Shown here: positions 31,914 through 50,091 of the stretch, one piece after another
Layout: each line of letters starts with the position of its first letter
Position numbering within the stretch: the first letter of the stretch is position 1
Source of the DNA: an uncultured Planctomycetota bacterium
GTDB lineage: Bacteria; Planctomycetota; Planctomycetia; Isosphaerales; Isosphaeraceae
Direction: 5' to 3'
DNA length: 64,000 nucleotides
Assembly (NCBI GenBank): GCA_963845755.1
Contig: CAWJTV010000009.1
Coordinates: 96,001 to 160,000, forward strand
Translations under genes and position numbers: made by a program
Notes under the pieces: generated by a model
The model's database searches: none
Told to the model about the DNA's origin: nothing
Seen by the model: the letters and a program-made list of their open reading frames with translations, nothing else

Positions 31914-32106
31914 GGAACGTGCGGATTCGGAGCCCTATCCCCCTAACGCGGCCTTCGGCCGCAACCCCATCGGGATTCCCGATTCGCGATTCCCGATTCC
32001 CGAAGGGGAATGATCCGGGAATCCGGAATCGCGAATCCGGAATCCGGAATCCCCAGATGTGCGGAGGGCGCAGGGAGCCTACGGAGGACGACTCGAACGC
32101 GGCCTT

Positions 32107-32661
32107 GGAACGCTGACGAAACAACTTCCCGGAATCGGACCAGCCCTAACTCGTTCCCACGCTCGGAATGCCGACGAAATAACTTCCCGGATTCCGGAGG
32201 TACTTAGTGACTATCTCGGAAGGTCTTTGTAGGGTGCTCTGTGAGCACCGATCCGGTGTACTTTGCCGAATTCGGTGCTCACAGAGCACCCTACGAGACG
32301 GCCATTGAGGCTTCCAGGACAGACTCGTACTTACCAGCGGGTTTTCGGGAAGTTGTTTCGTCAGCGGTCTCTGCGTGGGAATGCCTTCTTCGACGCTCTG
32401 CGTCGCGGCCTTCGGCCCCGCCCGTGGGACGCGGAGCGTCCCGGACGGCATTCCCACGCGGAGAGGCTGTGATTTTTTTGTACGACGACTGTCAGATCGG
32501 ATCAACTGTACACGATTTCGGTGCCCCTAATGAGCCCCGAATCGATGCTCAGGACGATCAACGGCGATTCGGGGCTCAATAGACAGCGTCGCCGATCAAA
32601 AAATCACAGCCTCGGAGCGTGGGAACGAGGGGAAATCGGGAGGTTGTTTCGTCAGCGTTCC
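32107..32661. mobile_element. MITE (TIR GGAACGCTGACGAAACAAC) containing two further nested MITEs (32165-32370, 32463-32613)
   Basis: Removing both inserts plus their duplications leaves 194 bp, the length of the empty copy at 36430-36623. Confidence 0.8.
32229..32294. repeat. GTAG-type REP doublet, cargo of the inner MITE
   Basis: Perfect inverted pair GTAGGGTGCTCTGTGAGCACC / GGTGCTCACAGAGCACCCTAC. Confidence 0.85.
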
Positions 32662-32891
32662 TCGGCCGCAACCCAATCGAGATTCCGGATTCCCGAAGGG
32701 GAATCAATGGGATTCCCGATTCGCGATTCCCGATTCCCGAAGGGGAATCAATTGGGATTCCCGATTCGCGATTCCGGATTCCCGAAGGGGAATGATTCGG
32801 GAATCCGGAATCTCGAATCCGGAATCTCGAATCCGGAATCCGGAATCCCCAGATGCGCGCCCGGCGCAGGGAGCCTACGGAGGAAAACTTT

Positions 32892-33261
32892 GACACTCCT
32901 CGCTCATCACTACCTCGGTTCGAGACTGTTCCCTACGCCGAAGGCGTTAGACAGCACAGCCCAGGGTCGCCGCAAGGCGGCACCCTGGGAAGCGATCCGC
33001 TCAGAACACCCGTACCCCAACGGGGTTCCACAACCGAGTCCGCCCCATCGTCCCCCGCGGTACCCGGTGCGCCTGCGGCGACCCCGGGCTGTGTTGTGTA
33101 ACGCCTTCGGCGTAAGGACACGATGGTGGATAGTCTCCCCGCGGTACCCAGGTGCGCCTGCGGCGACCCTGGGCTGTGTTGTGTAACGCCTTCGGCGTAA
33201 GGATCGCAACCCAATCCCACGGGTGGCTCCAGGAACCCGGTGGCGTTCGGCGAGGAGTGTC
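32892..33261. mobile_element. MITE with 12-bp TIR GACACTCCTCGC and 9-bp target duplication, carrying three palindromic repeat arms
   Basis: GAAAACTTT at 32883-32891 and 33262-33270; internal TACGCCGAAGGCGTTA..CAGCCCAGGG arms. Confidence 0.75.
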
Positions 33262-33268
33262 GAAAACT

Positions 33269-34644
33269 TTACTTCAACGGGCGTTTCCAATGCCCGGCGC
33301 CGGCAGGATGGACGACACCGATCGCGACCTCCTGGACCATCGCGATGTCGGCCGCGGTGGCCTGGAGTGTCGGGATGGCCCTGGACGGGCTCAATGCCAA
33401 TGAGCTGACACTCACGGCCTTCCGGCGCGGCGTTCGGGGCTGTTCAGTGCGGACCGCGTGCTGGCTCAATGCCAATGAGCTGACACTCACGGCCTTCCGG
33501 CTGAGGACGAATACGGCGTTGGCTTCCGCCTGTCCATCGTGATTGCTGTCGATGAACCGGCCGAGGTTATCTTGCAGGCCGCTCGGGGGTACTCCGTTGA
33601 CCTGGAGCTGGACCGGCTTTGTGAGGGCGAAGGGCTTCTTTGGCGTCAACGTCACCTCGTTGAGCGTCGGGTTATACACCGCCGATTTCAAGGCGACGAC
33701 CTTGGCATTCCTGGCCGTGAACGACTCTTTCTTGCCCGGCGTCGCCAATCGATAGGTCCCCACGCGATTCGCCTCGGCGACATTCACTGCGCCGCTGAAG
33801 TCAACCGTGACCTGGGTGACCATGTGCGTCTTGTTCCGCACGAACTGGACGTTCGTCACAGAGACCAGAGGAGGTGTCGGGGTCGGCATGGGCATCGGCA
33901 TTGGCATCGGCATCGGCGTTGGCGTAGGCGTTGGCGTGGGTGCAGACGCCGATGTTGTCACGGTGAACGGAGTGGAATCGCTGAGACCGTCGAAAGAGGC
34001 GCTAATCGTGACACTGCCCGCGGCGACGCCGGTCACCAGTCCCTGCGATCCGGGGGCGTTGGAAACCGTAGCCACCGCCGGGTTGGAAGAGGTCCAGGTT
34101 GCTTCGGCGCTCACGTCCTCATCCGTCGTAATGTTGTCGGCGTACATGCTCATGGCCATGAATTGCTGGGTGGTGCCCGAGGGAATACGATAGTTGGCCG
34201 GCATCAGCATGATCATGGTGAGAGGCGATGGCGGAAGGACGATGATCGTCCCAAACATGCCGCTCGCCGTCCCGTTTCCGTTGTCGGTCCCGCCGACCGT
34301 GGAGTAATAGGCGAACGTCCCCACATGCGTGAAGGTGTGATCAAACGTGGCGCCGGCGTTGAGCAAGCCGGAATCCCACTGTTCCACGCTTCCCCTCACT
34401 GAGGTCGTGCTGAGATCGTTCGAATCCCACACCCATTCGACGGTGTCTCCCACGTGGACCGTCACGGGATTCGGGGCGAATGCCCCGGCGATGACGTCAA
34501 CCCCGGAACTGGCCAGGAGCGCGCGGTTCTCCAGCGATTCCAGGTCGGGCGCCGGGCCGATCGCGGCCTACGTGCGTCGGGCCGGCTCCCGGGCATCGAT
34601 GCGACGAAGAACCGACTCAACCGCTCGCCGAGAGATCGCGACAC
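33269..34644 (-). CDS. Exported LExRxLL protein: degenerate cupredoxin + Ig-like (Big-2) + Pro/Met linker + C-terminal domain; frameshift ~34550
   Basis: LESLENRALL; VTVHVGDTVEWVW; TWTSSNPAVATVS; collinear with 34785-36026. Confidence 0.8.
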
Positions 34645-34784
34645 CAGAGGATCCTCCCTGTATCAAGAAGTAATGTTTACGTTGTTATTTTGTATGATCA
34701 GAATGCAACGATCGAGCTGGCTCGCGTCGGAAACGGGCCGGCCGCCGTCGAGGCCGGCCCGTTTCCCGGTGTGGGACGCGGGAT

Positions 34785-36026
34785 TCAAGCCATCGGCCCC
34801 GACTTGTGCTTCGAACCCGCGGAGGCGGCCGACGAAGTCACATCACTCGTCACGGCCACGTCGGGCGTCAGGGCAGCGATCGCCTGGAAGGTCGGAGCTT
34901 CGCCGGCGGACGTCGCGACGACGGCACTCAGGGTTACCCCCTTGGAGCGGAGCACGGCGACGGCGTTGCCGCCCGCCACGCCGTCGTGGTTGCCGTCGAT
35001 CAGCCGGCCCTCGCCGTCTTGCAGGCCCGCCGGCGGCAACCCCTCGACCTGGACCTGGACCGGCTTCGTGAGGGCGAACGGCTTCTTCGGCGTCAGCACC
35101 ACGTCGTTGAGCGACGGGTTATACACCGCCGATTTCAGCTTGATGACCTTGGCATTCTTGGCGGTGAACGAATTCTTCTTGCCCGGCATCGCCAACCGGT
35201 AGGTCCCCACGCTATCCGCCTGGGCGGCGTTCACCGCACCGCTGAAGTCGACCGTGACCTGGGTGACCATGTGCTTCTTGTTCCGCACGAACTGGACGTT
35301 CGTCATCGAGATCAGGGGCGGGGGAGCCGGGGGCGGCACGATCACCGTGAGTTGCGTCGCGCCGTTGAGGCCGTTCAACGATGCGGTGATGGTGGAAGTG
35401 CCCTGCCCCACGCCGGTCGCCAGGCCCTGCGAACCCGACGCGTTGGAGACGGTGGCCACCGATGTGTTCGAGGAGCTCCACGTCACCTGGCTCGTCAGGT
35501 CCTCCGTCGTGTTATCGGAGAGTGTACCCATGGCCATAAACTGCTCGCTGGCATTCGGGGCGATGCTCGGGTTGGCCGGCATCACCATGAGCGAACTGAG
35601 GGTTGCCGGGGCGAGGACGTCGATCGTCCCGCTCATGCCCCCCGCCGTCCCGTTCCCATTGTCGAACCCGTGAATCTTGCAGTAATAATTGAACGTCCCG
35701 GTCTGGTTGAATGTCTGATCGAACACGAAACCCGTGTTCTTCACGCCGGAGTCCCAGGACACGGCGCTTCCCGCCACCGAAGTCGTGCTGTGATCGCTCG
35801 TCTGCCAGACCCACTCGACGGTGTCGCCCGTGTGGATCGTCACGGTGCTCGGGCTGAATGCGAAGTTGACGACGTCAACGGTGACCGTGGTCAAGAGCGC
35901 CCGGTCTTCCAGGAATTCCATCGTGGGGAGTCGGCCCACTCGAGGCCGACGCACCCGATGGCGGCCCTGGGATGTCAACACGCCGAGCACCCGATGCAAC
36001 TGCGGATTCAAGAGCGATCGCGACAT
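34785..36026 (-). CDS. Exported LExRxLL protein: plastocyanin-like cupredoxin + Ig-like (Big-2) + C-terminal domain
   Basis: MEFLEDRALL; type-1 Cu ligands DHSTTS and YYCKIHG..GM; TWSSSNTSVATVS. Confidence 0.88.
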   Translation of the reverse strand: MSRSLLNPQLHRVLGVLTSQGRHRVRRPRVGRLPTMEFLEDRALLTTVTVDVVNFAFSPSTVTIHTGDTVEWVWQTSDHSTTSVAGSAVSWDSGVKNTGFVFDQTFNQTGTFNYYCKIHGFDNGNGTAGGMSGTIDVLAPATLSSLMVMPANPSIAPNASEQFMAMGTLSDNTTEDLTSQVTWSSSNTSVATVSNASGSQGLATGVGQGTSTITASLNGLNGATQLTVIVPPPAPPPLISMTNVQFVRNKKHMVTQVTVDFSGAVNAAQADSVGTYRLAMPGKKNSFTAKNAKVIKLKSAVYNPSLNDVVLTPKKPFALTKPVQVQVEGLPPAGLQDGEGRLIDGNHDGVAGGNAVAVLRSKGVTLSAVVATSAGEAPTFQAIAALTPDVAVTSDVTSSAASAGSKHKSGPMA

Positions 36027-36429
36027 AGAATGATCCTCGGTTGTGGCTCAATCTCTCGAGCGATGGATGGAAGACTTTGTTCCCGTGCTTGTTCAGGCTC
36101 ATTGCGGTCGGGCGGACGAACGGCTCTGGAGGGGGACGGGAACGATGACCCCCGAGTGAACCCGGAGGCGCGCGCACCCGCCTCGTCAAGGACAGCGACC
36201 ACGAATCAAAAATGCCGATTCTCGGATTTAAGCGCTTCTCTGTCCGCAGATGAAACAACTGTCCCGAGAAACCGAGCTGATTCGGTTCGCCCAAGCTGAA
36301 ACCACCGAGTGGAAGTGATCCGCTACCCTCCTAAGTGGAGAGAACGAGGAGACGGGTTACATCTTTTTCTGAAAAGGGGCGCGCCGGACAGCCGTTATCC
36401 TGACATCATCGACGACGATGATGGCCCTT

Positions 36430-36623
36430 GGAACGCTGACGAAGCAACTTCCCGGAATCGGACCAGCCCTAACTCGTTCCCACGCTCTGCGTGGGAATGC
36501 CTTCTTCGACGCTCTGCGTCGCGGCCTTCGTCCCCGCCCGTGGGACGCGGAGCGTCCCGGACGGCATTCCCACGCGGAGCGTGGGAACGAGGGGAAATCG
36601 GGAGGTTGTTTCATCAGCGTTCC
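36430..36623. mobile_element. Empty 194-bp MITE with REP-like palindromic core
   Basis: TIRs GGAACGCTGACGAAGCAAC / GTTGTTTCATCAGCGTTCC; sits in a GGCCC-TT-GGGCC palindrome. Confidence 0.8.
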
Positions 36624-36982
36624 TTGGGCCGTGGGCTTGGCAACGCGATCGTCTTCCGTTCCGCTGATCCCCGAATTCTGTAACCAATCGTCGGGATTCC
36701 GCCTCTATATTGGGGGAGAGTAACGAGCCCTGGCGAGTCCCGATCTGCCGGCGCAAATCTTTCCTTCTAGGGCGTGAGGCGGTCGCGAGAAAGGCTCCGT
36801 GGGGGGAAGGTGATTGTCCGCGGTCGCTGTGCAGCCATCCCGACCGCGACCGATGACTGCCTGAGATCGTGTCAGGCCGAGAAAAAAGCTGAAATGGGAT
36901 TCAGGCGCCGATATCTAGGGAAGGTTGACCGGTCTCGATCCCGGAGTTCGGGCGTGAGGATGGATCGCAGGAGGTTTTCCCA

Positions 36983-37753
36983 GTGAGCTGGATTCCAGAT
37001 CGGTATGCAGGTCGGCGCCGACCAAATCGGGAACAGGCTCCAGCGATCGTCGAGATCCTGGAGAGGCGCTCTCTCCTGGCCACGGTCACCGTGGACGTCA
37101 TCAATTTCGCCTTCAACCCGGACCCGGTGACCATCCACGTGGGCGACACGGTCCATTGGGTCTGGGACGCGGACGATCACAGCACGACTTCCGTGGCGGG
37201 GAGCCTCGAGTCGTGGGATTCCGGCGTTCTCAATACCGGTGCCACATTCGATCACACGTTCGAGCAAGCGGGAACTTACGTCTACTACTGTAAGATTCAT
37301 GGCTTCGACAATGGGAATGGGACCGCGAGTGGGATGGCTGCCTCGATCGTCGTCCTCCCCTCACCCACACCGACACCGACGCCCACACCGACACCGACGC
37401 CCACACCGACACCGACACCGACGCCCACACCGACGCCGACGTTTCCATCCGCGATTGGACGCTTCCGAGTTACACCCTTGAAAGTCCAGGCGACCCAATT
37501 CAAGACATATCACGGTCTAATTGCCAACTTCACCGACCCTCAGGTCACCCAGGCCCAGGGTTTCCACGTCAAGATCAATTGGGGGGACGGGTCCAAGCCA
37601 ACGCCTGGGCATGTTGAGGCCCGGGGCAAAGGCCGGTATTCGATCATCAGCCAGCACCGGTATGTCAAACCTGGCAGGTTCCACATAACCGTCACCGTTG
37701 GCGCACTCGGGAAAAAAATCCAGACGGAGAGCCTCGTGCGCGTCATCAGATAG
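36983..37753 (+). CDS. Exported LExRxLL protein: cupredoxin + (PT)n linker + PKD/Ig-like domain
   Basis: VEILERRSLL; DHSTTS, YYCKIHG..GM; long PT linker; INWGDG and HRYVKPG..ITVTV. Confidence 0.85.
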   Translation: MSWIPDRYAGRRRPNREQAPAIVEILERRSLLATVTVDVINFAFNPDPVTIHVGDTVHWVWDADDHSTTSVAGSLESWDSGVLNTGATFDHTFEQAGTYVYYCKIHGFDNGNGTASGMAASIVVLPSPTPTPTPTPTPTPTPTPTPTPTPTPTFPSAIGRFRVTPLKVQATQFKTYHGLIANFTDPQVTQAQGFHVKINWGDGSKPTPGHVEARGKGRYSIISQHRYVKPGRFHITVTVGALGKKIQTESLVRVIR

Positions 37754-37891
37754 AGAATTGACACCAACCTACGCAAGCAAGACGACCTCCCCGTCACGAC
37801 ACCTCTGATTCGCGCGGGCTCGTCGGTCCTCTGAGCCGCGACGTACCCGAAACTGGATCCCATCCTTCAACGACGTTGGGATGAATCGATC

Positions 37892-38967
37892 ATGGACAAG
37901 GCACTTCCGAGCTGGCTCGTGGTTCCTGGGATCGCCCTATCTCTCCTCGCCGCCGAGATCCGATGGAGTGGAGCGGTCAGGGCCGCCGGATGGCCTGCGG
38001 AAAGGGATGACCAGGCCTCGAGCCCGGTCCGCTGGGCATTGCGGACCGAAGCCGCCGAAGTCGTGCAGGCCGCTTCGCCGCCCCAGTCCGCGACCAGCCG
38101 TCAGCCGAACTCGGAGCCGATGCCATCGGGAGCCGAGACGACCGAGCCACCGCGAGCGAGCACTTTCCCCGCAGCGGTCATCCAGGTTTACCGGGCGTCG
38201 TGTCTGCAATGTCACGACAACGATGGACGAGGCGAGGTTGGCCGCGCCGTGTCGTCGAAAATCCCGGATTTCACCCATCCGCAGTGGCAATCATCCCGGA
38301 CCGACCCTGAGTTGAGCCACTCGATCCTCGAAGGTAAGGGGAAATCGATGCCCCGGATGAAGGATAAGCTAGGATCCGTCGATGTGAAGCTGATGGTGGC
38401 TTTCGTGCGGGCGTTTCGCGGGGGAAACCAGGTCGTCGATGATGAGCCCGAGGAACCGCCGACAGCCGCGCAACCCTCCGAAACCCGGAGTCCCAACAGC
38501 GAGCGCCTACCCGTCCATGCGCCTTCGCCTCCCGGCCAGCAGGAGCCGAAGGTCCGGGAAGCCCAGCGACTCTTCCAGCGATCCTGCGTCGCCTGCCACG
38601 GTTCCGACGGCAAGGGGATGGGGATGAGAGACAACCTGCCGACCATCCCCGATTTTACCGTCCTCGACTGGCAACAGAAACGGAGTGACCCCCAGTTGGT
38701 CGTGAGCATTCTGGACGGCAAAGGGACCGGGATGCCGGCGTTCCGCGACAAGGTCGCCAGCGAGCGCGTCCGCGACCTGGTGGCGCTCATCCGCAGGTTC
38801 GCGCCGGGATGAGCCCATCGGCAGGATCCGCCCCGGACGATTTCGAGATCCGCTTCAATCAACTCTTCAAGGAGTTCGAGTCGCTCGATAAGCAGATCCG
38901 AGCACTCTCGCAGCCCGCATCGGGCAGCACCGCGGCACCCCCGGCGAAGGGAAGCCGCAACCGATGA
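37892..38967 (+). CDS. Exported diheme c-type cytochrome; probable frameshift ~38810 adding a coiled-coil tail
   Basis: CLQCH..IPDFT..W..GKG.SMP and CVACH..IPDFT..W..GKG.GMP; ORF stops at 38812 but DDFEIRFNQLFKEFESL continues in another frame to TGA 38967. Confidence 0.85.
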
Positions 38968-38998
38968 AACGCAGTCATGTGGTTACCCACAGAAAACG

Positions 38999-39339
38999 GG
39001 TTCATCCGGATTTCGCGCCCGACCGATCAGGAAGCCGTGAATTGGTGACCACGAAGCCGCCACGAATCGCCCCGAAGGGGCCCCGACAAACCAGCCCGGG
39101 GCAACGCCCCGGGGACGCGTCGCCCACCCCAATCCCTGCCCTGAAGGGGCCAGACAAACCGGGCCGGCGGCCTGCACCTGTGTCGCCCTTTCAGGGCATT
39201 TTCCCGTTGGGGGCTCCGTTCCCGGGGCGTTGCCCCGGGCTGTTATCTTGCGGCCCCTTCGGGGCAAGGATTCGCCGTGGGCGAGGCCAGATCACAACTC
39301 CACCGTTTTCAAGACCGGCGCGCCGGATCCGGATGAACC
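38999..39339. mobile_element. MITE with TIR GGTTCATCCGGAT and ~8-bp AT-rich duplication (ISL3-like ends) carrying a palindromic cassette
   Basis: Flanks AGAAAACG / AGAAAAACG; cargo GCCCCGAAGGGGCC..CCCGGGGCAACGCCCCGGG..GCCCTTTCAGGGC. Confidence 0.7.
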
Positions 39340-39520
39340 AGAAAAACGGTGGAGTCCCAAGAAACTAGTAACCGGGACCTGGGATCGGGGATCTGTTAAG
39401 GTGGGCCGCTCAAAGTTGGAGATGGCTTCGAGAGGTGCCGTGGTTGTTCTGGACCGAGATCAATGAGCCTCGACAAGAGTCATCGCTCGTCGAGAGCGAG
39501 ATTGGGAACAGGTCGGCCCT

Positions 39521-40000
39521 GTGGACTCTCAAACGCCCGACTCTCGCCTCCGAGTTCGCGTCCGCCAGCTCCTGGTGGCGATGATGTTCATCATGGCCGT
39601 TCCAGGCGTCTCGGCCGTCGAGGTCATGAGGCATCCGGCTCTCCTTGCCGATCGCCGGTCGTGTGAGTGTGCCTCGTGCTCTCGAGGTAAGCCCTGTTGT
39701 TGCCTCCCGGACAACCCGCCGACGCGATTTGAAGAGCAGCCCCCCGATCCGGCGACGCAGCCCTCCAGGCGAGGCGCCCGAGCCTGTGTGGGCGCCATCC
39801 CGTGCGGCGGGGATGAACCATCCGGAATCGTGAGTTCGCGCCTCCCCGTTCAGCAAGCCGACTTCCGGTTCCTGAGTCTCTCGACTCCGAGACCTCGCGG
39901 GTCGTACTGGACCATGCCCTCGTCGCTCCTCCGCTCATCCCTTCTTCGTGCCCGACTCGACGAACCCCCGGAACCGCGCGGCCACTCCGACGGCGTCTGA
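39521..40000 (+). CDS. Small Cys-rich protein with N-terminal hydrophobic segment (DUF2946-like architecture)
   Basis: QLLVAMMFIMAVPG; CECASCSRGKPCCC; ACVGAIPCGG; C-terminal RLDEPP. Confidence 0.55.
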   Translation: MDSQTPDSRLRVRVRQLLVAMMFIMAVPGVSAVEVMRHPALLADRRSCECASCSRGKPCCCLPDNPPTRFEEQPPDPATQPSRRGARACVGAIPCGGDEPSGIVSSRLPVQQADFRFLSLSTPRPRGSYWTMPSSLLRSSLLRARLDEPPEPRGHSDGV

Positions 40001-40353
40001 GCCGCGACCCGGGCCGAATCCCAGATTTCCGATTCGGGAATCATCCCCATCTGGAATCTGAAATTCGGAATCGCCAGTATGTAAACGCGTTATTGATATC
40101 CTTCGGAGGGCGACGCGAATTCGTTGACCCGTACGCGAAGCGATCGCATCTTCGCGCAGCCAAGGCGCCGAGGAGCCGCCATCCTGCCGGCCCGAACCAA
40201 TCCGCCGTCACTCGCCGTGACGATCGGTTCCGGGGTGCGTTCGCCCCTCCCCGGGCACCGAGTTCGCATCCGGCGCGGATCCTGACGGGGAACGGCCCGA
40301 TGTCCCTTCACTTCCCTGGAATCATCACCATTATGTCAATAAGGGGAAATGAC

Positions 40354-41325
40354 ATGAATCGCCCCCGTGGTTTCACACTGATCGAGCTCCTGGTCGTCAT
40401 CGCCATCATCTCGGTGTTGATCGCCCTGCTCCTGCCCGCGGTCCAATCGGCCCGCGAGGCGGCGAGACGTGTTCAGTGCACCAACAATCTCAAGCAACTG
40501 GGGATCGCACTGCATAACTATCACGACTCGATCGGCGCATTCCCGCCCGGGTATTTGTCCCTGAAAGACCCGGTCACGTTCGACAACGACGGTCCTGGGT
40601 GGGGCTGGGCGGCCCGCTCCCTGGGTCAGATGGAGCAGGCTTCCCTGTTCAACAGCATCAATTTCCCGCTCGGGATCGAGTTTCCGGCCAACCAGACGGC
40701 CCGGCAGACGCTCCTCGCCTCATTCCTCTGCCCGTCCGATGCCTGGAGATCGGACAGATTCACCGTCGTCAACTCGAGCACCAGCGGTACCACGCCCGGT
40801 GCTCCGATCTGCGTGGTCGCATCATCGAACTACGTCGGGTCGTTTGGCAAGGGGGATCCTTCGAGCCTCTACCCTTACATCATGGATGCCGACGATGGCC
40901 CGCCCGGGCGCGACAATGGCGACGGTCTCTTCTACCGGAATAACTCGGTGAACATCGCCCAAATCCTGGATGGAAGCAGTCAAACCTTCGCCGTCGGCGA
41001 GCGGAGCCAGAACCTCTCTCGCGCGTGCTGGAGCGGGGCCGTTACGAACGCAGCCGTCCCCCTGGTGGCGCTCCAGGCCGAAGCCGGGCTCGACCCCGAG
41101 GGCGGTGGGGCGATGGTCCTGTCCCATACCGGCGAGGGGCACGGTCCCAATTCCCCCTCGGGCCTGGCCCACGGCGACCAATACTGGTCGCTCCATCCCG
41201 GGGGGGCCAACTTCCTCTTCGCCGACGGGAGTGTCCGTTTCATCAAGGAACAGGTCGGCTTCCAGATATTCCAGGCCCTCGCCACGCGAGCCGGCGGCGA
41301 GGTCCTTTCGGCCGATTCCTTCTGA
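40354..41325 (+). CDS. DUF1559 prepilin-type protein
   Basis: [60 protein letters not shown]. Confidence 0.95.
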   Translation: MNRPRGFTLIELLVVIAIISVLIALLLPAVQSAREAARRVQCTNNLKQLGIALHNYHDSIGAFPPGYLSLKDPVTFDNDGPGWGWAARSLGQMEQASLFNSINFPLGIEFPANQTARQTLLASFLCPSDAWRSDRFTVVNSSTSGTTPGAPICVVASSNYVGSFGKGDPSSLYPYIMDADDGPPGRDNGDGLFYRNNSVNIAQILDGSSQTFAVGERSQNLSRACWSGAVTNAAVPLVALQAEAGLDPEGGGAMVLSHTGEGHGPNSPSGLAHGDQYWSLHPGGANFLFADGSVRFIKEQVGFQIFQALATRAGGEVLSADSF

Positions 41326-41385
41326 TCCGGACCAGGCGCCCACCGCGGTGACTCGTTCGCATTGCTGTAACGGACACTCGAGTTC

Positions 41386-41667
41386 GAGACTTCTCGCTCC
41401 ATACCACCGAACTGGGACCGTCCGTGGCTGATTCTTGCCCCGGAGGGGTTGCAACAAACCAGCCTGGGGCAACGCCCCAGGAAGAAGGCGCCGATCTCCT
41501 CCCCGCCGAGCCCTGTAAGGGCGGCACAAGCCGGAGCAATCGCGGCCGCTGTACCGCCCTTTCAGGGCTTGATCTCTGGGAGCGATTCGATTCCCGGGGC
41601 GTTGCCCCGGGCTGGTTTGTTGCGGCCCCTTCGGGGCGAATCGTGGCGGTGTTTAGCGAGGAGTCTC
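41386..41667. mobile_element. MITE with TIR GAGACT(T/C)CTCGCT carrying the same cassette family as 38999-39339
   Basis: TIR related to the 32892 element; flanks CGAGTTC / CGATTTC; cargo ~41437-41637. Confidence 0.6.
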
Positions 41668-41690
41668 CGATTTCTCGTATCACGCAGGGC

Positions 41691-42225
41691 CTAGGGGAGG
41701 GGTTGGGCAGCAGGTATCCCCGCGGCAGGCTGCTGTGGAGGCGCTCCCGCCTGGTCGCCGACCTGGAAGGGACCGGGCCCATTCGGCGGCGCCGCCGGCC
41801 TGGGCGTGGGGGCGTCTCCCCGTAGTTCGGCGATCGGCTGGGGGAAGACCGACCGCTTTGGCGAAGGCTCCACCGAGGGTGTCGGTGGGCCGACGTCGTC
41901 CCATCGCCGCAGAAAATACATGAGCTGACGGTATTCCTTGCCGGTGAGATAGGCCTGGTCGCGCATGTGCGTCATCGCCACGTGATAGTTGCTGAACGGG
42001 CGCTCGCCCAGCGGGCGCGCATTGTGGCATGAGCCGCAATACATCTTGAACAGTTGCCCCCCGGCCGCGGCGTCGTCGTACTCTCCCGTGAGTTCGCGAG
42101 GCGGGTTGAACGGGCATGCCCTCCTTCGTGCTGTAGTTTCGGCTGATCGTATGCGGTGAAGGGGTCTCGCAGCCCGCCACGAGGACGACAAGCACAACCA
42201 GCCCAGGCCGACAGAGACGATTCAT
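41691..42225 (-). CDS. Monoheme cytochrome c lipoprotein; apparent frameshift ~42120
   Basis: MNRLCRPGLVVLVVLVAGC lipobox; GGQLFKMYCGSCHNAR..MTHM; AAGGAGG RBS. Confidence 0.82.
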
Positions 42226-42246
42226 CGTGCCCACCTCCTTCGTCGT

Positions 42247-43859
42247 TCAGAATCCCCAGACAATCTGGCCGATGAAACCGTTGTCCCTCAATGACGGGAC
42301 GCCCAGCTCGTCATAATTCTCGATCGCGAGCTTGAGGGCCAGCGACGGATAGAACCAATAATTCACGCCGATGGTATACCGGTTCCGGTCGAGGGGCATG
42401 CGCGCATACGGGAGGCCGAATGCCGCCGAAGTTGATCCCGGTCTGTGCGATGTTGATCCCATCGAACTGGACATGATCGAAACGGAAGACCCACTCCAGT
42501 TTCTGCAAGATCGGATTGGAGTTGTCGTATTGTCGATAGGCGACCTGGGCATAGAGTCCCTGCCGGTGGATGGGCCTGGACGGCGTCGACTGGTCCATGT
42601 GGGCCATCTCGAACCGCGCATCCCAATTGCCTTTGTGGTAGTTCGCGTCGATATCCCAGAGATTCAAGTTGTTATTAGCTGCGTCGTAGGCCTGGTTCGC
42701 CAGGCCGGAGATTCCCGCGATGAAGCCGACTTTCGGGATCGACAGGCCGAGTCGACCGCCCCAGGCCTTGGCACCATTCACGTCGACGGTCGAGTCCGTG
42801 AAATTGCTGAGGTCGGAGTAGACCTTCGGCGATAGGTTGCTGCCGGCAACCGACAGCCCGTTCGCCACGAACCCGACATATTCCAGCTTCACGGGCGAGT
42901 CAAAGAGATACTTCGCCCCGCGCAATTGCAAGCCGTCGAAATACAGTTGGTTCGGATACACCTGGTTGAACATAAGCGGATTGTCTGGAGTCTTGAGTAC
43001 CCATCCCAGCCGAAGGCGCTCGGTATAGAAACCAATCGGTGAGTAGAACCGGCCTGCGACGAAGGTCAAGCTGTCGTTGATGAACCACTCGGCTTGCATC
43101 CGACAGATCTGCAGCGAGCTGCCCAGGAGGATGATGTTCGCACTCATCATCCATCGCTCATTCAAGAGTATGTAGGGGTGGAGCTGGAGGGTCGGTGGGA
43201 TGAAGGTGGAGTTTTGCTTGCTGAAGGCGGTAAACTGCTGATCCAACATACCGTAGATGGCCAGGGGTGATTCGTTGTTGCGAGTCGGCAGGAAGAGCTC
43301 CCGGAGGGTTGACGGCAGGACCGGATCGGTGCGAGTCAAGGCGTCGACCTGCTCGAACAGATCGTCGCGCAACTTCGCCAGCGCCTGATCGCGCTGGGCA
43401 CCTTGCAGGATGCGGGCCTCCTGGGTCGCGACCTGTTCCTGGAGCTTCTCGACCGCCGCGCCCGTGGCAGGCTGCTTCTTGGCCTGGTCGGCGAGCAGTT
43501 GGGTCATCCTGAGCAGGACGTTGATCTGCTTCTGTTGCAGGTCGACCTGCCGCCTTGAGACGATCGATCTCCGGCCCGGACGCGGCCTTCGCCTGGGCCT
43601 GCGCCTGGCCGAGGTCCTGGAGCTCCTGACCGATCCGAGCCAATTCCGGCGGCCGGTTCGGCTCGGCAACCTCGGTCTTGCCCGGATCGGGTTCGGCTGG
43701 CCGGGAGGCATCGGGCGGCACGCCCTGTCCTCGCACTTCTTCGGCCCACGACCACCATCCAATCACGAGGACGATGGGTATGATGGCTCTTGGAATTGGC
43801 AAAGCATGGACTCCGTCCGTAACGTGCCCAGAAGAACGGGGGATGATATGACCCCGCAT
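42247..43859 (-). CDS. Outer-membrane beta-barrel (porin-like) with N-terminal coiled coil; apparent frameshifts ~43555, ~42420
   Basis: Coiled-coil QVDLQQKQINVL; amphipathic strands (AGRFYSPIG, WGGRLG, GLYAQVAYR, YTIGVNYW); terminal GQIVWGF. Confidence 0.8.
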
Positions 43860-44107
43860 GAGTCAGTCGGCGACCGGTGTCGCCGGAGATACCTCGTGCA
43901 CCGACGACGACTGGTCATCCCGCCCACTCGTGGGACCGGATTCGGTGCATGAGCGACCTGAGATCAGCCGGAGAGCGGCCGAGACGTGAAGTGGTCCATC
44001 CGTTCAACGATCGGCAAACACGGACAGAGAACTATTGGAAAATCCGACAAACCTCGCCAGGGCAACGGGGAAGTGGAGATCGAGGCGTCTTCTCCTGCCG
44101 GCGGCCG

Positions 44108-44746
44108 TCATCGCGGAGTCGTAGCTGGCGGGACTGCGGCGGGGAGCGGTGGCACGCCCGAGATCGATCCGGCGGCCGGTGATGACGCCGGTCTCGCCGA
44201 TCCCGAGGTGCCGGAGGCGCTCGGAGCGGCGGCACGGCCGACGTCCGGACGCGAGACCTCGGTCCCGGGGACGAAGCTGCGGAGATAATGGGACATCGCC
44301 CACATCTCGTCGAGGGCGAGCGTCCCTCGGAAGGTCGGCATGACGGCGCCTCGGCCTTCCGACAGGATATTGACGATCTGCGCGTCTGAACGCGACGACT
44401 GCCAGCGAGGGTCGGTGAAGTCGGGCACGTCGGGGATGTCCCAGACGCCCCGGCCGTCGACGCCATGGCAACGGATGCAGTATCGATTGTAGAGCGACAT
44501 GACGACGCGCTGTTCCTGGTCCGGACTCCGCATCCAGTACCATTGGCCCGCCCAGCCGGCGGGTGCGAGACAACGATCGGCCGGGCAGCCGTGGTGTCCG
44601 CAGGCGGGGTGGTGTTTCTTTTTCCAGAGCCAGCCGGCCTGCGCCACCGGTGGCGAGGCGAATTCCGCCGACAAGACCGCGAGAAGGACCAGGCCGAGTC
44701 CTCCGACCGCGGCAGTCCGCCGTCCTGGTCGCCAGAATGCCTCCAT
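44108..44746 (-). CDS. Exported monoheme cytochrome c, paralogous to the diheme domains
   Basis: Signal peptide; YCIRCHGVDGRG..VPDFTDPRWQSSRSD..GRGAVMP; GGGGAGG RBS. Confidence 0.88.
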   Translation of the reverse strand: MEAFWRPGRRTAAVGGLGLVLLAVLSAEFASPPVAQAGWLWKKKHHPACGHHGCPADRCLAPAGWAGQWYWMRSPDQEQRVVMSLYNRYCIRCHGVDGRGVWDIPDVPDFTDPRWQSSRSDAQIVNILSEGRGAVMPTFRGTLALDEMWAMSHYLRSFVPGTEVSRPDVGRAAAPSASGTSGSARPASSPAAGSISGVPPLPAAVPPATTPR

Positions 44747-45008: not shown

Positions 45009-46242
45009 TGAGCCGAGAACGCGACCTCCCGGATTGTGGGTTGCCGGGCGCGGATGGGATTGAGACCATCCAGACCCGAAGCCAGCGAGATGGGATCTGG
45101 CTACACGCCCTATAAGTGCATCCGACAGGAGTTCTGGTTACAGGTTTTTTTGTCGGAAGTCGGAACCTCGGTCGCTGTCGCCATTTCGATCGCACCTGTC
45201 TTCGTCGCAAGCCCTGGACCGTGCCCGACGCCGAGGAGGTCGAGCCGTGGGTCCCGACCATCATTCGGCCCGGCCGCGTGCACTTCACCAGGACCAGAGC
45301 CGCGCGGCCCGTCAGGCCGCGCAGATTCTTTCCGAGAGTTCTCGCCGGAGACCACCGGTGGCCGTGCCCGTCACACCGGCCGTTTTCGGCGCAGACCTCG
45401 AGGGCCCCCTCGGGGCCGATCACCGCGCCGTCTGCCCCGTTCCCGCCCGACGCCCCGGCGCAATCCCCGGCCCTCTTTTTTTGAAAAAAATCTGGATCTC
45501 CCACTCCTGTTGAGAGTTCGGGCGCGAAAAATCGTCACGTCGGGCATAGGTGCATTAACGAAATTCCAAAGTTGTGGCATCCTGATAGTAGAGGGCTCAT
45601 CAGGGGGCTCGCACAACCCGTTCCCCGCCGCGTTCGAGGCGTCTCACAACCCATGTCAGGTGATCCCGGAACTCGTCGCCTTCGGCCGTCAACCGGTCGC
45701 CGGAGCCGACCGGACCGACCCGGCAAGCGCTGGTCCCGAACTCATTTCAGGCCAACGAGATCGGGGATGGGGACCTTCCCCATTTGTAACGTAGTGTGCC
45801 ACATTGTGCCACGATCGGCGCCGCCCGGCGGCGGTCCCACCATCCCCCTGACGCCGTGGGGATCGCCGCGGATTCTCGGGATTCTGGGAGCCAACCCGGA
45901 GCCGCCTGGGCTGGTGCCCGCGGGACGGATGAGGGGCCGAACCAGGGATGCCGCGAATCACTCCGGATCGATACGGTGGTCTTGAGCGAGCAGTGTCGAA
46001 AGTATCGATTGTAAAGGCTGTCCGGGCTTCGGCACCGAGACGGAGCGAACCGAGACATTTTGGGGAACCTGGGAGTCGCGTGGACGGGAATGCGCATCCA
46101 TTCGATCCGACCGAATCGCTCACCCGAATCGCAGGGAAACCATTCCGGCCGCTTTGAACGCGTGAGCCGGTGATGTAAAATTCTTTTTCCCGGTATTCCG
46201 CGGCAAGTCGTCCCCACAACGAAATCTTGTTTGCACTCAATC

Positions 46243-48754
46243 ATGGCATCTAAACTTTCTCAACGCCCCGCTGCCAGGTCACCCGAAGTCGGGACGACTT
46301 CCGCCCTGAGAACCGAGGCGGAGCGTCTGATCGAGAAAGAGCGCTACAAGGATGCGGTCAAGCAGGCAAAGTTGTGTTACAAGGAGGCGGGCACGCCGGA
46401 GAACCATGGCCTTCTCGAGCGCGCGTATTTCCTTCGTGCGCGGCAGCTCCTCCAGCAAGGGATGCGATCGTCGGCCGCGGAGGTCGCCCAGCACTTGCTC
46501 GATTTCGGCGTGACGGGCTCCGACTTGCTGGAGGAGCTGGTCCGGCTGCTGATCACACTCGGGTTCGAGAAGGCGGCGATGCAGATCCAGGAACGGCTGG
46601 GCTCGCCGGCACAGAAGGGGCGGATCACGGAGCTGGCGGCCGACCAGCTCGTGCTTCATCCCGAGCGCACGGGGTGGCCGCGCCGGAGCTGGTGCGAGAC
46701 GCCGGCCTCATTCGCCAGGCACTGGAGAAGCTCCAGGTCAAAGATGAGGCCGGTGCCATGGAGACGCTCCGCGATCTGGCGCGGAGCTCGCCGCTGAGCG
46801 AGTGGAAGTTCTTCGTCCGGGGATTGGCCGCGTTCTATCGGCAGGACGATGCGGAGAGCCGGGCCAACTGGGACCGCCTCGCCCCCCAGCGGATGGCCTT
46901 CCTGATCGTCGAGAAGCTGCGCCGACTCATGGCGGAGGCGGCCGGTTCGAACCCGACGACCCTGGAAACGATGGAGAAGCTCGTCTTCGGCGAGCCGATC
47001 CTCAGCCGACTCCGGCAGGTGCGCGACCTGGCGGCCAGCCAGGAGTGGGACAAGGTTTTCCGCTTGCTCGGTCCGCTCCGTCATGGCTTGCAGCAGATCG
47101 ATCCCAAATTGGCCGAACGACTCACCGGCGTCCTGATCGGCTCGCTGATCAAGGCCGCGCAAGACCTGGACTGGCCCGAGGCGAAACACCTCATTACCCA
47201 ATTTACCCGGGTCGCGCAGCCGATGGCGATCGACCCGCGATGGAACCGACTGTGGGCGATCATCTGGGACGGGCCGCATGCCGATTTCGGGGGAGCGGTC
47301 GCCCGCTGGGTTGAGTACATCGCGGACCTCGAGACCCTGGAGTCGCTCTCGTCCTCAGAACGGGCACTGGCGCAGGCGATCGTCTGGGACCACGTGGCCC
47401 AGATCCATGGCGAGGAAGTCGAATACCTGTTGGACGACCTCGGCGAGTCACCTTTTCTGCCGTTCGCTCGACCGAGTCGGGACTCCAGGAAGAAGCGGGC
47501 TAAGGATCCGGCGGTCGTCGCCGTCAAGAAGCAGGTCGTCGATTCCCTGGGCGCAGCCTCAACCTTGCGCCCGAGTATCTCCCTACCTATCGGCTGCTGG
47601 TCAAGTTCCACCAGGAGTGGGAGGATTCCAAAGGGCTGGAGGCGGCCGCGAAACGGCTCCTCTCGGCCTTTCCCGACGACTTCGCGACCCATCAATTGCT
47701 GGGCCGTCACTACTTCCAAGGGAGCGACCTGACCGCGGCGCTGGTGCACCTCGAAAAAGCGCGCGCTCTCAAGCCGCTGGACCAGTCGCTGCGCGAGCTG
47801 GAGTGGATGATTCGGGTCGGGCAGGCGCGCAACTATGCCCTGGTCGGGCGCTGGGACGAAGGTCGCGCCGAGTTCGATGCCGCCGATAAGTTACTGCCCG
47901 AGTCCCGGCGGATGTACAGCTACCTGGCCCGCAAGGCGATTTTCGAGTACAAGGCTGGCCAGGGAGAGCGGAGCGACGAATACGTGCGCGAGGCCCAGGC
48001 CCTGCTGGCCGAGCCGGGCCCGCTCTGGCTGTCGCTGGCGATCGAGTCGAGCCGCTACCACATGCCCAAGAGCACGGTCAACGGATACGCCAAGAACTGG
48101 GAGACCGAGCAGAAGAAGAAGTGTCGGAGCGAGACGGCCGGAGCACTCGCGGAGCTGTTGGGGGGGTTCGTCGCCGCTGGTGTCGATTATCCCGGCCGCG
48201 CCAAGCACATGACGCAGGTCGTCGCCTACCTCCGGCGCACCCTCCGTCTGAAATACCGCCGGGAAGACATCGAGAACGTCCTCGCGTTCCTCAAGTACGT
48301 TCCCGACGAATTTACGTTATTCGAAAAACTCATCAGGGCCGGGTTGAAGCAGCACCCCGACTCGGTCCTGCTGAACCTCGACGCGGGCGAGGTCGAGCTG
48401 ACCAAGGGAAAGCATCTCGTCGGGGGCGCTCGGACGGCCCAGCATTATCTGGAAACCGCGCTCAAGCTCGCCGAGGCGTCGACGGATCCGAAGGTGACCG
48501 CCCTGCTGCCGGTGATCCGCAGCCAGCTCGGCGTGCTGGGCGAGATCACCGAGCGATTCGGACGATTCGGGTTCCCCTTCGGCGGCGACCCCTTCGGGAC
48601 GTCGTTCATCGATACTTCCGATTTTGAGGACGATTTCGACGACGAGGACGACGAGTTGGATGATTTCGACGATGAGGATCGGGTCCCCGTGCCGGCTCCC
48701 CCACGCCGCGCGCCGAAGAAACGCGGCTCCCGCAAGCGCAAGAAGAAGCGATAA
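46243..48754 (+). CDS. Large TPR-like helical protein, first gene of Hsp70 operon; apparent frameshifts ~46675, ~47555
   Basis: Joins ORFs 46231..46797, 46374..47732, 47696..48754; TPR-like helices; acidic then basic tail. Confidence 0.75.
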
Positions 48755-48760
48755 CGAACC

Positions 48761-49059
48761 ATGACCGACCCCTATGAGACCTTGAGCCTTCCCCCGGATG
48801 CCGGCGAAGCGGAGATCCGGCGGCGATACCTGGAACTGGTCCGGGAGTTCCCGCCGGACCGGGCCGCCGGAGCGATTCGCGATGATCCACGCCGCATACG
48901 AGGAGCTGCGCGACCCGGCGCACCGGTTGCAGTCGCAGATCTTCCAGTGCGAGACCACGGTCGAACTCGCTCGAGACGCTGGCGGCCGACTTGAGACGCC
49001 GGCTGCGGACCGCCCGGCTCCCGGTCGCCAGCCTGTTGAACCTTGTGGACTCGCCATGA
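48761..49059 (+). CDS. Small J-domain (DnaJ-like) protein with FPPD in place of HPD; apparent frameshifts
   Basis: MTDPYETLSL..EIRRRYLELVREFPPDRA / PERFAMIHAAYEELRDP; ATGA overlap with grpE. Confidence 0.8.
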
Positions 49060-50045
49060 ACGACACCCATTCAGACGATGTCAACGGCCTCCTCGAACGC
49101 TTTCGAGAATGGCTCGACGCCACCCAGATCGAGGCCGGCAACCTCCAAGGCTCCGGCAATGGTACCGGCCCGGAATCGGGCGATCCCCGGGACGCGGAGC
49201 ACCTGCGCCCGGAGCTCGGCCTGATCCAGTTGACCGAGGAGTTCACGGCGCTGCGTCACGAGCTGAAGCTCCAGACCAAGAGCGGCCGGGGGCTCCTCGA
49301 GCAGGCGGAGGCCATGATCGCCGCCATGCGCCAGGCCATCGAGCAGTTCCGCTCGGTCGAGTCCAAGGAGTCTCAGGCCGCCTGGGCCTCCGGCAAGGTC
49401 CTGGCCGAGGCCCTGGGCGACCTGGATGAGGCCCTCGACCGCGGCCGGCGTGAGATCGAGAAGGCCAGGCGGCGCATCGCCGAGGAGTCGATCCAGGTGC
49501 TGGTCAACGCGCTCGATGAACGGTTCCGCCGGCAATCGTGGATTCGCCGCCGGATGACGGGCGGATACCACGGACAGGTCCTCGACGTGGTGCGGGAAGT
49601 CGGCCGGACTCGCCGCGCCCTGTTCGACTCGCTCCTCGAAGGCTACGGCCTGATCCAGAACCGGCTCGCCCGCGCGATGAAGTCCGAGCGAATCGAGCGC
49701 ATCCCTTGCGAGGGGAACCCGGTGGATCCGGAACGGATGATGGTCATCGAGGTCGTCGAGGACTCGGGCCACCCGCCAGGGACGGTGGCCAAGGAGCTTC
49801 GGCGCGGATATACCTGGAAGGGCCGGCTGCTCCGTTACGCGGAGGTCCAGGCCGTCAGCACCGCGCATGGCCCGGATCCGGAGACCGACTCCGACGGCCC
49901 GGATCCCGGCGGCGGCGAATCGGGGCTCGCAGGCGGCGGCGAGTTCGACGACATCGACAACGGCCGCAACGGCGACGACGAGAACGACACCGGCATCGAC
50001 CTGGCGATCGCGACCGACCGGAACGCACCGGCCGGCTCGGATTGA
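49056..50045 (+). CDS. grpE: GrpE-family nucleotide exchange factor
   Basis: Long coiled coil, then IPCEGNPVDPERM..V....HPPGTVAKELRRGYTWKGRLLRYAEV. Confidence 0.85.
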   Translation: MNDTHSDDVNGLLERFREWLDATQIEAGNLQGSGNGTGPESGDPRDAEHLRPELGLIQLTEEFTALRHELKLQTKSGRGLLEQAEAMIAAMRQAIEQFRSVESKESQAAWASGKVLAEALGDLDEALDRGRREIEKARRRIAEESIQVLVNALDERFRRQSWIRRRMTGGYHGQVLDVVREVGRTRRALFDSLLEGYGLIQNRLARAMKSERIERIPCEGNPVDPERMMVIEVVEDSGHPPGTVAKELRRGYTWKGRLLRYAEVQAVSTAHGPDPETDSDGPDPGGGESGLAGGGEFDDIDNGRNGDDENDTGIDLAIATDRNAPAGSD

Positions 50046-50091
50046 TCCCATCCCGCCAAGAATCACCGCTCGAGTCAAGGAAATCGCAGCT

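Follow-up and report, generated by a model that had tools for sequence, protein, structure and literature searches.

A conserved, apparently undescribed porin-cytochrome cassette from Isosphaeraceae that probably couples an outer-membrane pore to respiration

Introduction

The known routes for electrons across the bacterial outer membrane are few (Cyc2, the MtrAB type, Pcc, PCC3/4 and Uet), and surveys of metal cycling count just those markers. Here we describe a porin-cytochrome cassette that does not pass as Cyc2 or MtrB by the marker features tested and would represent a further minimal design. It was found in a window of 64,000 nucleotides, the whole stretch analysed, from contig CAWJTV010000009.1 of an uncultured Planctomycetota bacterium of the Isosphaeraceae (GCA_963845755.1), and all coordinates are positions in that stretch. 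The cassette sits in an island of three cupredoxins, a diheme cytochrome, a Cys-rich protein, a DUF1559 protein, a monoheme cytochrome, a porin and a lipoprotein cytochrome; all nine genes were found where a first-pass annotation, which read them as one electron or metal-redox conduit, had placed them.

The closest described systems, compared here from the portions of the cited sources that were available, each share part of this design. Cyc2/Cyt572, acting with Cyc1, rusticyanin and alternative complex III (ACIII), has a 16-stranded barrel too narrow for a heme wire with one small heme protein tied to it, as in the cassette, and likewise has a class I diheme cytochrome, a blue-copper protein and ACIII as partners (10.1101/228056; PMC5566968). 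In contrast to Cyc2/Cyt572, the heme protein of the cassette is encoded by a separate downstream gene and may resemble the C-terminal part of TorC, the porin carries a long helical stalk and lacks AXPXFAR, and the cluster, which has no oxidase, goes with a second ACIII of its own that is fused to a cytochrome block. MtrAB/MtoAB/PioAB, Geobacter Pcc, PCC3 and PCC4 also combine a barrel gene with c-type cytochromes and a quinol-active inner-membrane partner (PMC5566968, PMC10734462), but their barrels are larger (26 strands in MtrB) and they hold from 4 to more than 20 hemes, whereas the cassette has 16 strands and one or two hemes (four in the ActE fusions described below). Because of this small barrel and so few hemes, long-range transfer to minerals is unlikely. 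ExtI, of the extHIJKLMNOPQS cluster, is another porin in a conserved cytochrome cluster, one needed for the reduction of small soluble species (PMC5877670); the cassette porin differs in giving no match to the ExtI model, its partners are of another kind as far as tested, and the ACIII link and the small cytochrome that we call HMR are specific to the cassette. The canonical ActABCDEF-SCO-Cox cluster, in which ACIII goes with a caa3 oxidase, has the same act gene order as the relatives of our locus, but in these relatives genes for di/triheme, monoheme and HMR cytochromes and for the porin stand instead of the oxidase genes.

Clusters of the Cyc2, MtoAB, PCC3/4, Uet, ExtI and ACIII-like kinds in Planctomycetota genomes assembled from metagenomes (MAGs) are on record, none of this make-up in the available parts of the reports (PMC5566968, 10.1101/228056, PMC5615132, PMC10732223, PMC10654088, PMC6295460, PMC13741234, PMC10734462, PMC13322032, PMC5877670). 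No description of the cassette was found in the literature searched, which was mostly without subscription papers and had supplements outside its scope; a table of PMC10732223, whose accessible part gives MAG OFTM8 as the source of one of our loci (L066), may list such a porin. The cassette is a real and conserved porin-cytochrome variant, apparently undescribed and distributed more widely than the planctomycetes.

Results

Gene content and conservation of the core

Judged by sequence comparison, only part of the island belongs to the conserved core, which consists of a class I monoheme cytochrome, a 16-stranded porin, an HMR cytochrome and a di/triheme cytochrome. Three of its genes lie on the minus strand: a class I monoheme cytochrome c, exported and His/Cys-rich at its N-terminus (44108..44746, CxxCH at 44465-44479), an OprO/OprP-like 16-stranded porin with a long N-terminal helical, coiled-coil-like stalk (42247..43802, start approximate, recognised from an intact ortholog, its model and a fold search), and a small lipoprotein monoheme cytochrome (41691..42225). 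The last has CxxCH at 42024-42038, HMR at 41961-41969 and a lipobox at 42169-42180 in another frame. The fourth gene, on the plus strand at 37892..38812, encodes an exported diheme class I cytochrome c with CxxCH at 38201 and 38585 (Pfam CBB3, 2.1e-20). No island protein holds more than two CxxCH motifs. The motif that the first-pass annotation had seen in three heme domains, the two of the diheme protein and that of the monoheme, is present; in the 14.3-Mb genome these domains find only one another at E<=1e-4, with E values of 2.7e-14 and 3.8e-12. The lipoprotein cytochrome, with CxxCH...HMR, does not belong to the type of these three.

The claim that such genes travel together held up well, as they co-occur in other genomes far above chance in the genome loci, the metagenome loci and a reciprocal HMR search. 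The porin is present in 10 of 61 related genomes, all of the window's family. Porin loci in the GTDB collection numbered 43, of which 41 are labelled Planctomycetota MAGs and many end at contig edges. In 42 of these 43 the HMR cytochrome lies directly 3' of the porin, and the other partners are a di/triheme cytochrome (34 loci), a monoheme (31), ActC (19) and a cupredoxin (2). A metagenome set, searched with one cytochrome-porin fusion as the query and reduced from 424 loci to 80, most of them from one lineage, has the HMR gene behind the porin in all 56 loci that include the porin end and room downstream. The reverse search, which did not depend on the porin, gave 23 HMR matches in 18 of 401 Planctomycetota genomes sampled evenly, and 21 of the 23 were directly behind this porin. 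The monoheme alignment, searched in the same 401 genomes with seven candidates scored in each, matched only in the genome studied here, and the form with four cytochromes was not found in that sample.

Beyond the planctomycetes, the porin-HMR pair is found in several phyla, and its order is kept on plasmids of Alteromonas, Glaciecola, Legionella anisa and Granulicella. A profile search for the porin returned 1569 representatives at E<=0.001, cytochrome-porin fusions included, and HMR-type proteins number at least 5300 at 90% clustering. The order does not hold in L155 and L158, where the porin is missing, in a decayed copy from Alteromonas, or where an S/N-oxide reductase carries an HMR-like domain as a fusion.

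The core of the monoheme cytochrome has a median pairwise identity of 71% among 27 sequences, and its closest solved relatives are CcoP and anammox c-552. For the HMR lipoprotein cytochrome no solved relatives were found beyond the CxxCH heme motif. The HMR-like domain of the relative fused to the S/N-oxide reductase matches residues 325-382 of TorC weakly (E 3.7e-4), and JGI labels several HMR homologs as nitrate/trimethylamine N-oxide reductase-like. The C-terminal heme domain of TorC passes electrons to the terminal reductase.

Several outlying loci are worth recording. In Photobacterium sp. DA100 (L153:6554-9204), a molybdenum S/N-oxide reductase gene, apparently frameshifted, has an HMR/TorC-like heme domain at its end. 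On the Alteromonas and Glaciecola plasmids (L069:8492-19101 and L070), the porin-HMR pair lies between CopCD and a [NiFe]-hydrogenase cluster, behind a small His/Cys-rich open reading frame (ORF) with a Pro-rich end; other A. macleodii plasmids (L154) have lost most of the porin.

Fold and family of the porin

The intact ortholog (L002) was modelled with a predicted local distance difference test score (pLDDT) of 78.7, giving an N-terminal helical part of about 110 residues and a barrel of 16 strands, and a Foldseek search with this model placed OprO/OprP at ranks 2-4. A distant member of the family aligned with OprP at Z 27.7 and a root-mean-square deviation of 2.9 over 300 positions, and profile A4 matched OprP at E 2e-4. 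Matches to PF07396 (phosphate-selective porin O/P) at E<=0.01 were seen in 7 of 53 members, the best at 5.8e-6. Several inward-facing arginines are invariant. Distant porins also have a conserved run of five inward-facing glutamates, which is not kept in the planctomycete porins.

According to the available part of Keffer et al. (10.1101/228056), Cyc2 has this same OprO/OprP-like 16-strand barrel, and a pore this narrow cannot hold a heme wire, so that the ion must enter the barrel. The comparison with the Cyc2 chain that had been suggested for the island is supported by this fold. CxxCH was absent from all 53 planctomycete-type porins, and the Cyc2 motif AXPXFAR[Q/K][T/Y] before CxxCH, taken from the same source, was absent from all 196 sequences searched. 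On these two counts we rejected Cyc2 as the identity of the porin. MtrB was rejected as well (16 strands, not 26; Pfam MtrB_PioB 11.7 bits against a cut-off of 23), and so was an MtrAB/MtoAB/PioAB-type system, as the island has no decaheme protein. PCC3 and PCC4 were set aside since the island genes include neither a cytochrome of four or more hemes nor a five-helix inner-membrane protein, and the ExtI model (NF040900) gave no match to L002 at E 0.01 and only 15.6 and 17.5 bits in distant relatives, against a cut-off of 150.

In 13 proteins a class I cytochrome is fused to a member of the porin family. These fusions occur only in distant relatives, with a cytochrome of another type, one that resembles cytochrome 579 (E 4.9e-12, far under the cut-off), and the AlphaFold2 model of one natural fusion shows a good fold. 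Together with the near-constant order of porin and HMR genes, the fusions suggest a physical coupling of pore and heme.

On a Legionella anisa plasmid (NZ_CP082853.1, L068:8062-12248), a triheme-porin fusion of 758 residues, an HMR-plus-class-I diheme and a triheme follow each other, the cassette being packed into three genes. A very distant porin, a long-branch outlier (L067:10001-11955), has no HMR gene; behind it come genes for an FMN-binding protein and ApbE, and Sox genes lie close by. It was not used for questions of function.

Association with alternative complex III

In 19 of the 43 genome loci the cassette lies next to an ACIII, where it occupies the usual site of the oxidase genes. 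The cassette is mostly directly behind actE/actF (on the same strand in L037, L051, L060 and L063), and the order of the genes for the pentaheme ActA, ActB, the NrfD-type ActC, ActD, ActE and ActF is kept in these relatives. Neither a SCO nor a Cox gene was found in any of the 43 loci. Each of the five genomes tested has, besides a canonical ACIII about 6 kb from coxI, a divergent copy at the cassette, and the two ActC proteins are 53-55% identical where full-length. Because a separate canonical ACIII sits by the oxidase genes in all five, the cassette takes the place of the oxidase behind the second ACIII.

The link extends to gene fusions. A triheme block is fused to ActE in eight loci, and in L057 its fusion partner is cytochrome b subunit IV, with a cytochrome b gene in front; the porin of L057 is sister to that of the ACIII-linked L060 in what is a quick tree with support by the Shimodaira-Hasegawa-like approximate likelihood-ratio test (SH-aLRT) only. 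By its sequence, the island diheme is the free-standing form of this block. The electron conduit of the first-pass annotation is thereby retained in part, as cytochromes tied to complex III by adjacency and fusion; a wire-type conduit is not, given at most two hemes per protein and a 16-strand barrel.

The window copy belongs to a six-member clade without an adjacent ACIII. No ActABCDEF genes are present in the window, and the only ACIII found in this genome is a canonical one on contig C15, with caa3 genes.

Some variants of the ACIII-linked form were noted in passing. Two MAGs hold both an ACIII-less and an ACIII-linked cassette (L026 with L049, and L027 with L038). In one ACIII-linked clade a small conserved exported protein of about 97 residues, with no heme, is encoded between the HMR and diheme genes (L019:11418-11711; 10 loci). 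L039, an ACIII-linked cassette in a MAG labelled Deltaproteobacteria, falls beside a Pirellulales copy in the porin tree, through transfer or mis-binning.

Frameshifts in the window copy

Four frameshifts interrupt the island genes: two in the porin, near 43552 and 42421, one in the lipoprotein cytochrome near 42110, which parts the lipobox from the heme domain, and one in the leader of cupredoxin A near 34544. Four DNA runs were consulted for comparison; they contain just 5-8% of the words and were used solely for pieces with few differences. The base at 43550 is missing from near-identical contigs of runs X1 and X4, from two studies; over 275 bases the X1 piece has 4 further differences. A contig of run X2 over the lipoprotein cytochrome gene has 7 differences and one gap somewhere along it. 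Close contigs were thus seen over 43550 and the lipoprotein gene, and none is shown over the 42421 frameshift. Frameshifts were present in 5 of 26 genes tested in this genome, the porin being one, and another member of the family, G015, has the intact 537-residue porin ortholog mentioned above, 70% identical. Since contigs of two of the runs lack the extra base and other genes are frameshifted too, the four frameshifts are probably assembly errors.

Cupredoxins and metal-gene neighbours

The cupredoxins, which had been counted as parts of one system together with the Cys-rich and DUF1559 proteins, are a recurring accessory and not part of the core, going by their distribution. The annotation had credited two of the three with a complete His-Cys-His-Met site, and this was borne out. 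Cupredoxin B (34785..36026, minus strand) has the full site, a Big_2 domain and an export leader that we take to be of the planctomycete type (Pfam Copper-bind 3.5e-5, above the cut-off, and Big_2 1.2e-11; ligand positions). Cupredoxin C (36983..37753, plus strand) has the full site, a PT stalk and a PKD domain (Copper-bind 1.8e-5, above the cut-off; PKD 4.6e-5). Cupredoxin A (33269..34596, minus strand) is degenerate, with an immunoglobulin-like Big_2 domain, a PT/PM stalk and a C-terminal extracellular domain (Big_2 1.6e-11, Copper-bind 0.003); its leader is in a different frame, and it has lost the type-1 copper ligand set (His to Leu, Cys to Ser, His to Val). A paralog in G008 is degenerate in a similar way.

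All three copies of this cupredoxin subfamily in the genome are inside the island. The subfamily is absent from eight other porin carriers, and proteins with only a PKD domain fill the cupredoxin slot in L026 and L027. Cupredoxins nevertheless recur beside the cassette in other lineages, which together with the variable filling of the slot is why we regard them as accessory. The cupredoxin upstream of the cassette in L094 has full ligands and a PT stalk and is 53% identical to cupredoxin C over 76 residues; such a cupredoxin stands ahead of the cassette in 12 of the 16 metagenome loci that leave room for it, and other cupredoxins flank the cassette in L178, L179 and L180.

Metal genes, including FTR1, CbiM/ZnuA, CDF, P-type ATPase, RND pump, CopAB, FtrD-like, HMA and CopCD genes, often stand beside distant copies, and other copies have no such neighbours. 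In L186 FTR1 lies directly upstream, and the distant locus L179 includes a gene for oxidase subunit II. TIGR03118 genes are near the cassette in L026, L055 and L116, and with four such matches elsewhere in this genome we give them little weight.

The soil lineage of L094 (1828-10894; also L102, L112, L116 and L118), of about 54% guanine-cytosine content, has a fixed gene order: a carboxypeptidase-regulatory-domain protein, a histidine kinase, an unknown protein of 405 residues, a response regulator, a cupredoxin-FG-GAP protein, a cytochrome, the porin and the HMR cytochrome. In L116 the TIGR03118 protein, confirmed by hidden Markov model, comes after the HMR cytochrome.

Discussion

We consider it probable that the core is a porin-coupled redox module wired to respiration. 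The island would then be an outer-membrane redox station resembling an unfused Cyc2, in which a narrow OprP-like pore lets in small dissolved species, the HMR cytochrome sits at the periplasmic mouth of the pore and swaps an electron with them, and the monoheme and di/triheme class I cytochromes connect the HMR heme with complex III on its cytochrome c side. We infer this docking, the order of the carriers, the direction of flow and the substrate from the gene linkage, the fusions, the modelled barrel, the heme and copper ligands and the second ACIII of relatives. In planctomycetes the route may run outward, from quinol through ACIII or a bc complex to the di/triheme, the monoheme and the HMR heme, and from there to a soluble oxidised metal, for example a complex of Fe(III), Mn(III) or Cu(II). 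Reverse electron flow is of little use to heterotrophic planctomycetes, and outward flow is favoured because of this and because the cassette replaces an oxidase behind the second ACIII. The window copy would draw on the housekeeping ACIII of contig C15, and its exported cupredoxins could serve as accessory carriers or metal binders. This fuller account, in which quinol electrons reduce a soluble metal species, we hold tentatively, at somewhat under an even chance. The weak TorC match of an HMR-like domain and the metal-handling genes near copies in distant lineages also count in its favour. Several points weigh against it. The window has neither ACIII nor bc genes, so the argument on direction is borrowed from a sister clade; its frameshifts mean that this copy could be decaying; and the planctomycete pore lining is mixed, with about 10 K/R against 12 D/E by a crude alternation count that identifies no metal substrate. 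Some loci consist of porin and HMR alone (L025 and several others), some HMR cytochromes have no lipobox, and location and wiring vary. In addition, the loci are not independent by kinship, as the 19 ACIII loci make up about three clades and one lineage supplies most of the metagenome loci. Lastly, the cupredoxin partners, the oxidase subunit II of L179 and the FTR1 of L186 fit oxidation at least equally well.

Oxidation, which the first-pass annotation had offered as Fe/Mn oxidation or copper handling, is indeed the main rival, even though the commonest partner, a dedicated ACIII without an oxidase, favours outward flow instead. Here Fe(II), Mn(II) or Cu(I) would be oxidised at the HMR heme and the electrons passed through class I cytochromes and cupredoxins to caa3 or uphill through the second ACIII, for energy, FTR1 iron uptake or copper detoxification, a scheme that may suit this ACIII-less copy. 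The barrel fold shared with Cyc2, the cytochrome 579-like heme domain on distant porins, the glutamate run, the recurrence of cupredoxins in several lineages, the FTR1 and oxidase neighbours just named, and a Cyc2-Cyc1-ACIII model that has been proposed for Mariprofundus, to go by the available part of that source, all speak for it. The glutamate run is not kept in planctomycete porins, however, the Cyc2 motif is missing from all 196 sequences, none of the 43 genome loci has an oxidase gene, and heterotrophic planctomycetes would have little reason to keep a second ACIII for reverse flow, so that we regard inward flow as rather unlikely. A channel like ExtI, selective for an oxyanion or small solute that is processed in the periplasm, with the cytochromes as nearby carriers that do not dock, would agree with the invariant arginines and with the anion selectivity of OprO/OprP, the closest folds. 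Distant relatives do match the ExtI model weakly (E 0.0014-0.0055), and ExtI itself, in the accessible part of its description, is a porin in a cytochrome cluster that is required for selenite/tellurite reduction (PMC5877670). These matches are far below the cut-off of that model, no gene for a catalytic enzyme is conserved beside the cassette, and the porin-HMR order and the 13 fusions suggest coupling, which makes such a channel improbable.

It is also conceivable, though we think it very improbable, that the window holds a decaying remnant which has lost its ACIII, with the cupredoxin, Cys-rich and DUF1559 genes being unrelated surface-protein genes gathered at a repeat-rich site. Three of the four frameshifts lie inside about 1.5 kb, dispersed repeats separate island genes, PKD-only proteins can occupy the cupredoxin slot, G001 of the same genus (87% complete) gave no match, and a decayed cassette copy is known on an Alteromonas plasmid. 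On the other side are the X1 and X4 contigs without the extra base at 43550, the X2 contig with its one gap over the lipoprotein gene, and the 4 of 25 other tested genes that are frameshifted too. Moreover, the same clade holds intact orthologs without ACIII (L025-L027), and the cupredoxin subfamily occurs in only two of the 61 genomes, the cassette-bearing G000 and G008, with five of its six copies in the island.

If outward flow is correct, a second ACIII that ends in a porin and not in an oxidase would be a new output for this complex, and would imply metal-linked respiration in organisms supposed to be plain aerobic heterotrophs. The carriers include soil planctomycetes, abundant lineages of soil metagenomes, and cultured Acidobacteria and Gammaproteobacteria. 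A broader proposal, possible but on balance doubtful, is that porin and HMR form the core of an unrecognised, cross-phylum class of minimal outer-membrane metal oxidoreductases that escapes searches with Cyc2 and Mtr markers and can swap between ACIII, bc complexes, oxidases and metal permeases as docking partners, and that soil and peat planctomycetes respire soluble metal or humic acceptors through the second ACIII. Among the cultured carriers, Granulicella tundricola and Alteromonas macleodii KD01 make the cassette directly testable.

Probable passenger genes and repeats

The two remaining island genes, both on the plus strand, encode a small Cys-rich protein (39521..40000; no Pfam match, unnamed Atlas clusters at 0.96) and a DUF1559 prepilin-like protein (40354..41325; Pfam DUF1559, 4e-52). 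DUF1559 has 185 tblastn matches across the genome and a close homolog in the island of L028, and no homolog of the Cys-rich protein was found in the 43 loci at E<0.4. On contig C43, an 81.5%-identical DUF1559 paralog is preceded by a similar Cys-rich ORF. The window pair is flanked by copies of a dispersed, REP-like intergenic repeat (39070..39260, with a related copy at 41440-41640), which have 34 and 31 near-full-length copies in the genome, respectively. Given the paralogous pair, the flanking repeats and the lack of Cys-rich homologs in those loci, the pair is probably a passenger. The Cys-rich protein recalls the metal-responsive DUF2946 leader peptides, a resemblance that we keep as a lead.

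Elsewhere in the window, positions 32000-33260 and 36440-36620 are densely packed with short intergenic repeats, palindromic and tandem, of which the genome has up to 89 near-full-length copies. Beyond the island, at 46231-51903, a frameshifted TPR-rich gene is followed by small ORFs and, by eye, a DnaK-like Hsp70 gene, probably a chaperone-like cluster.

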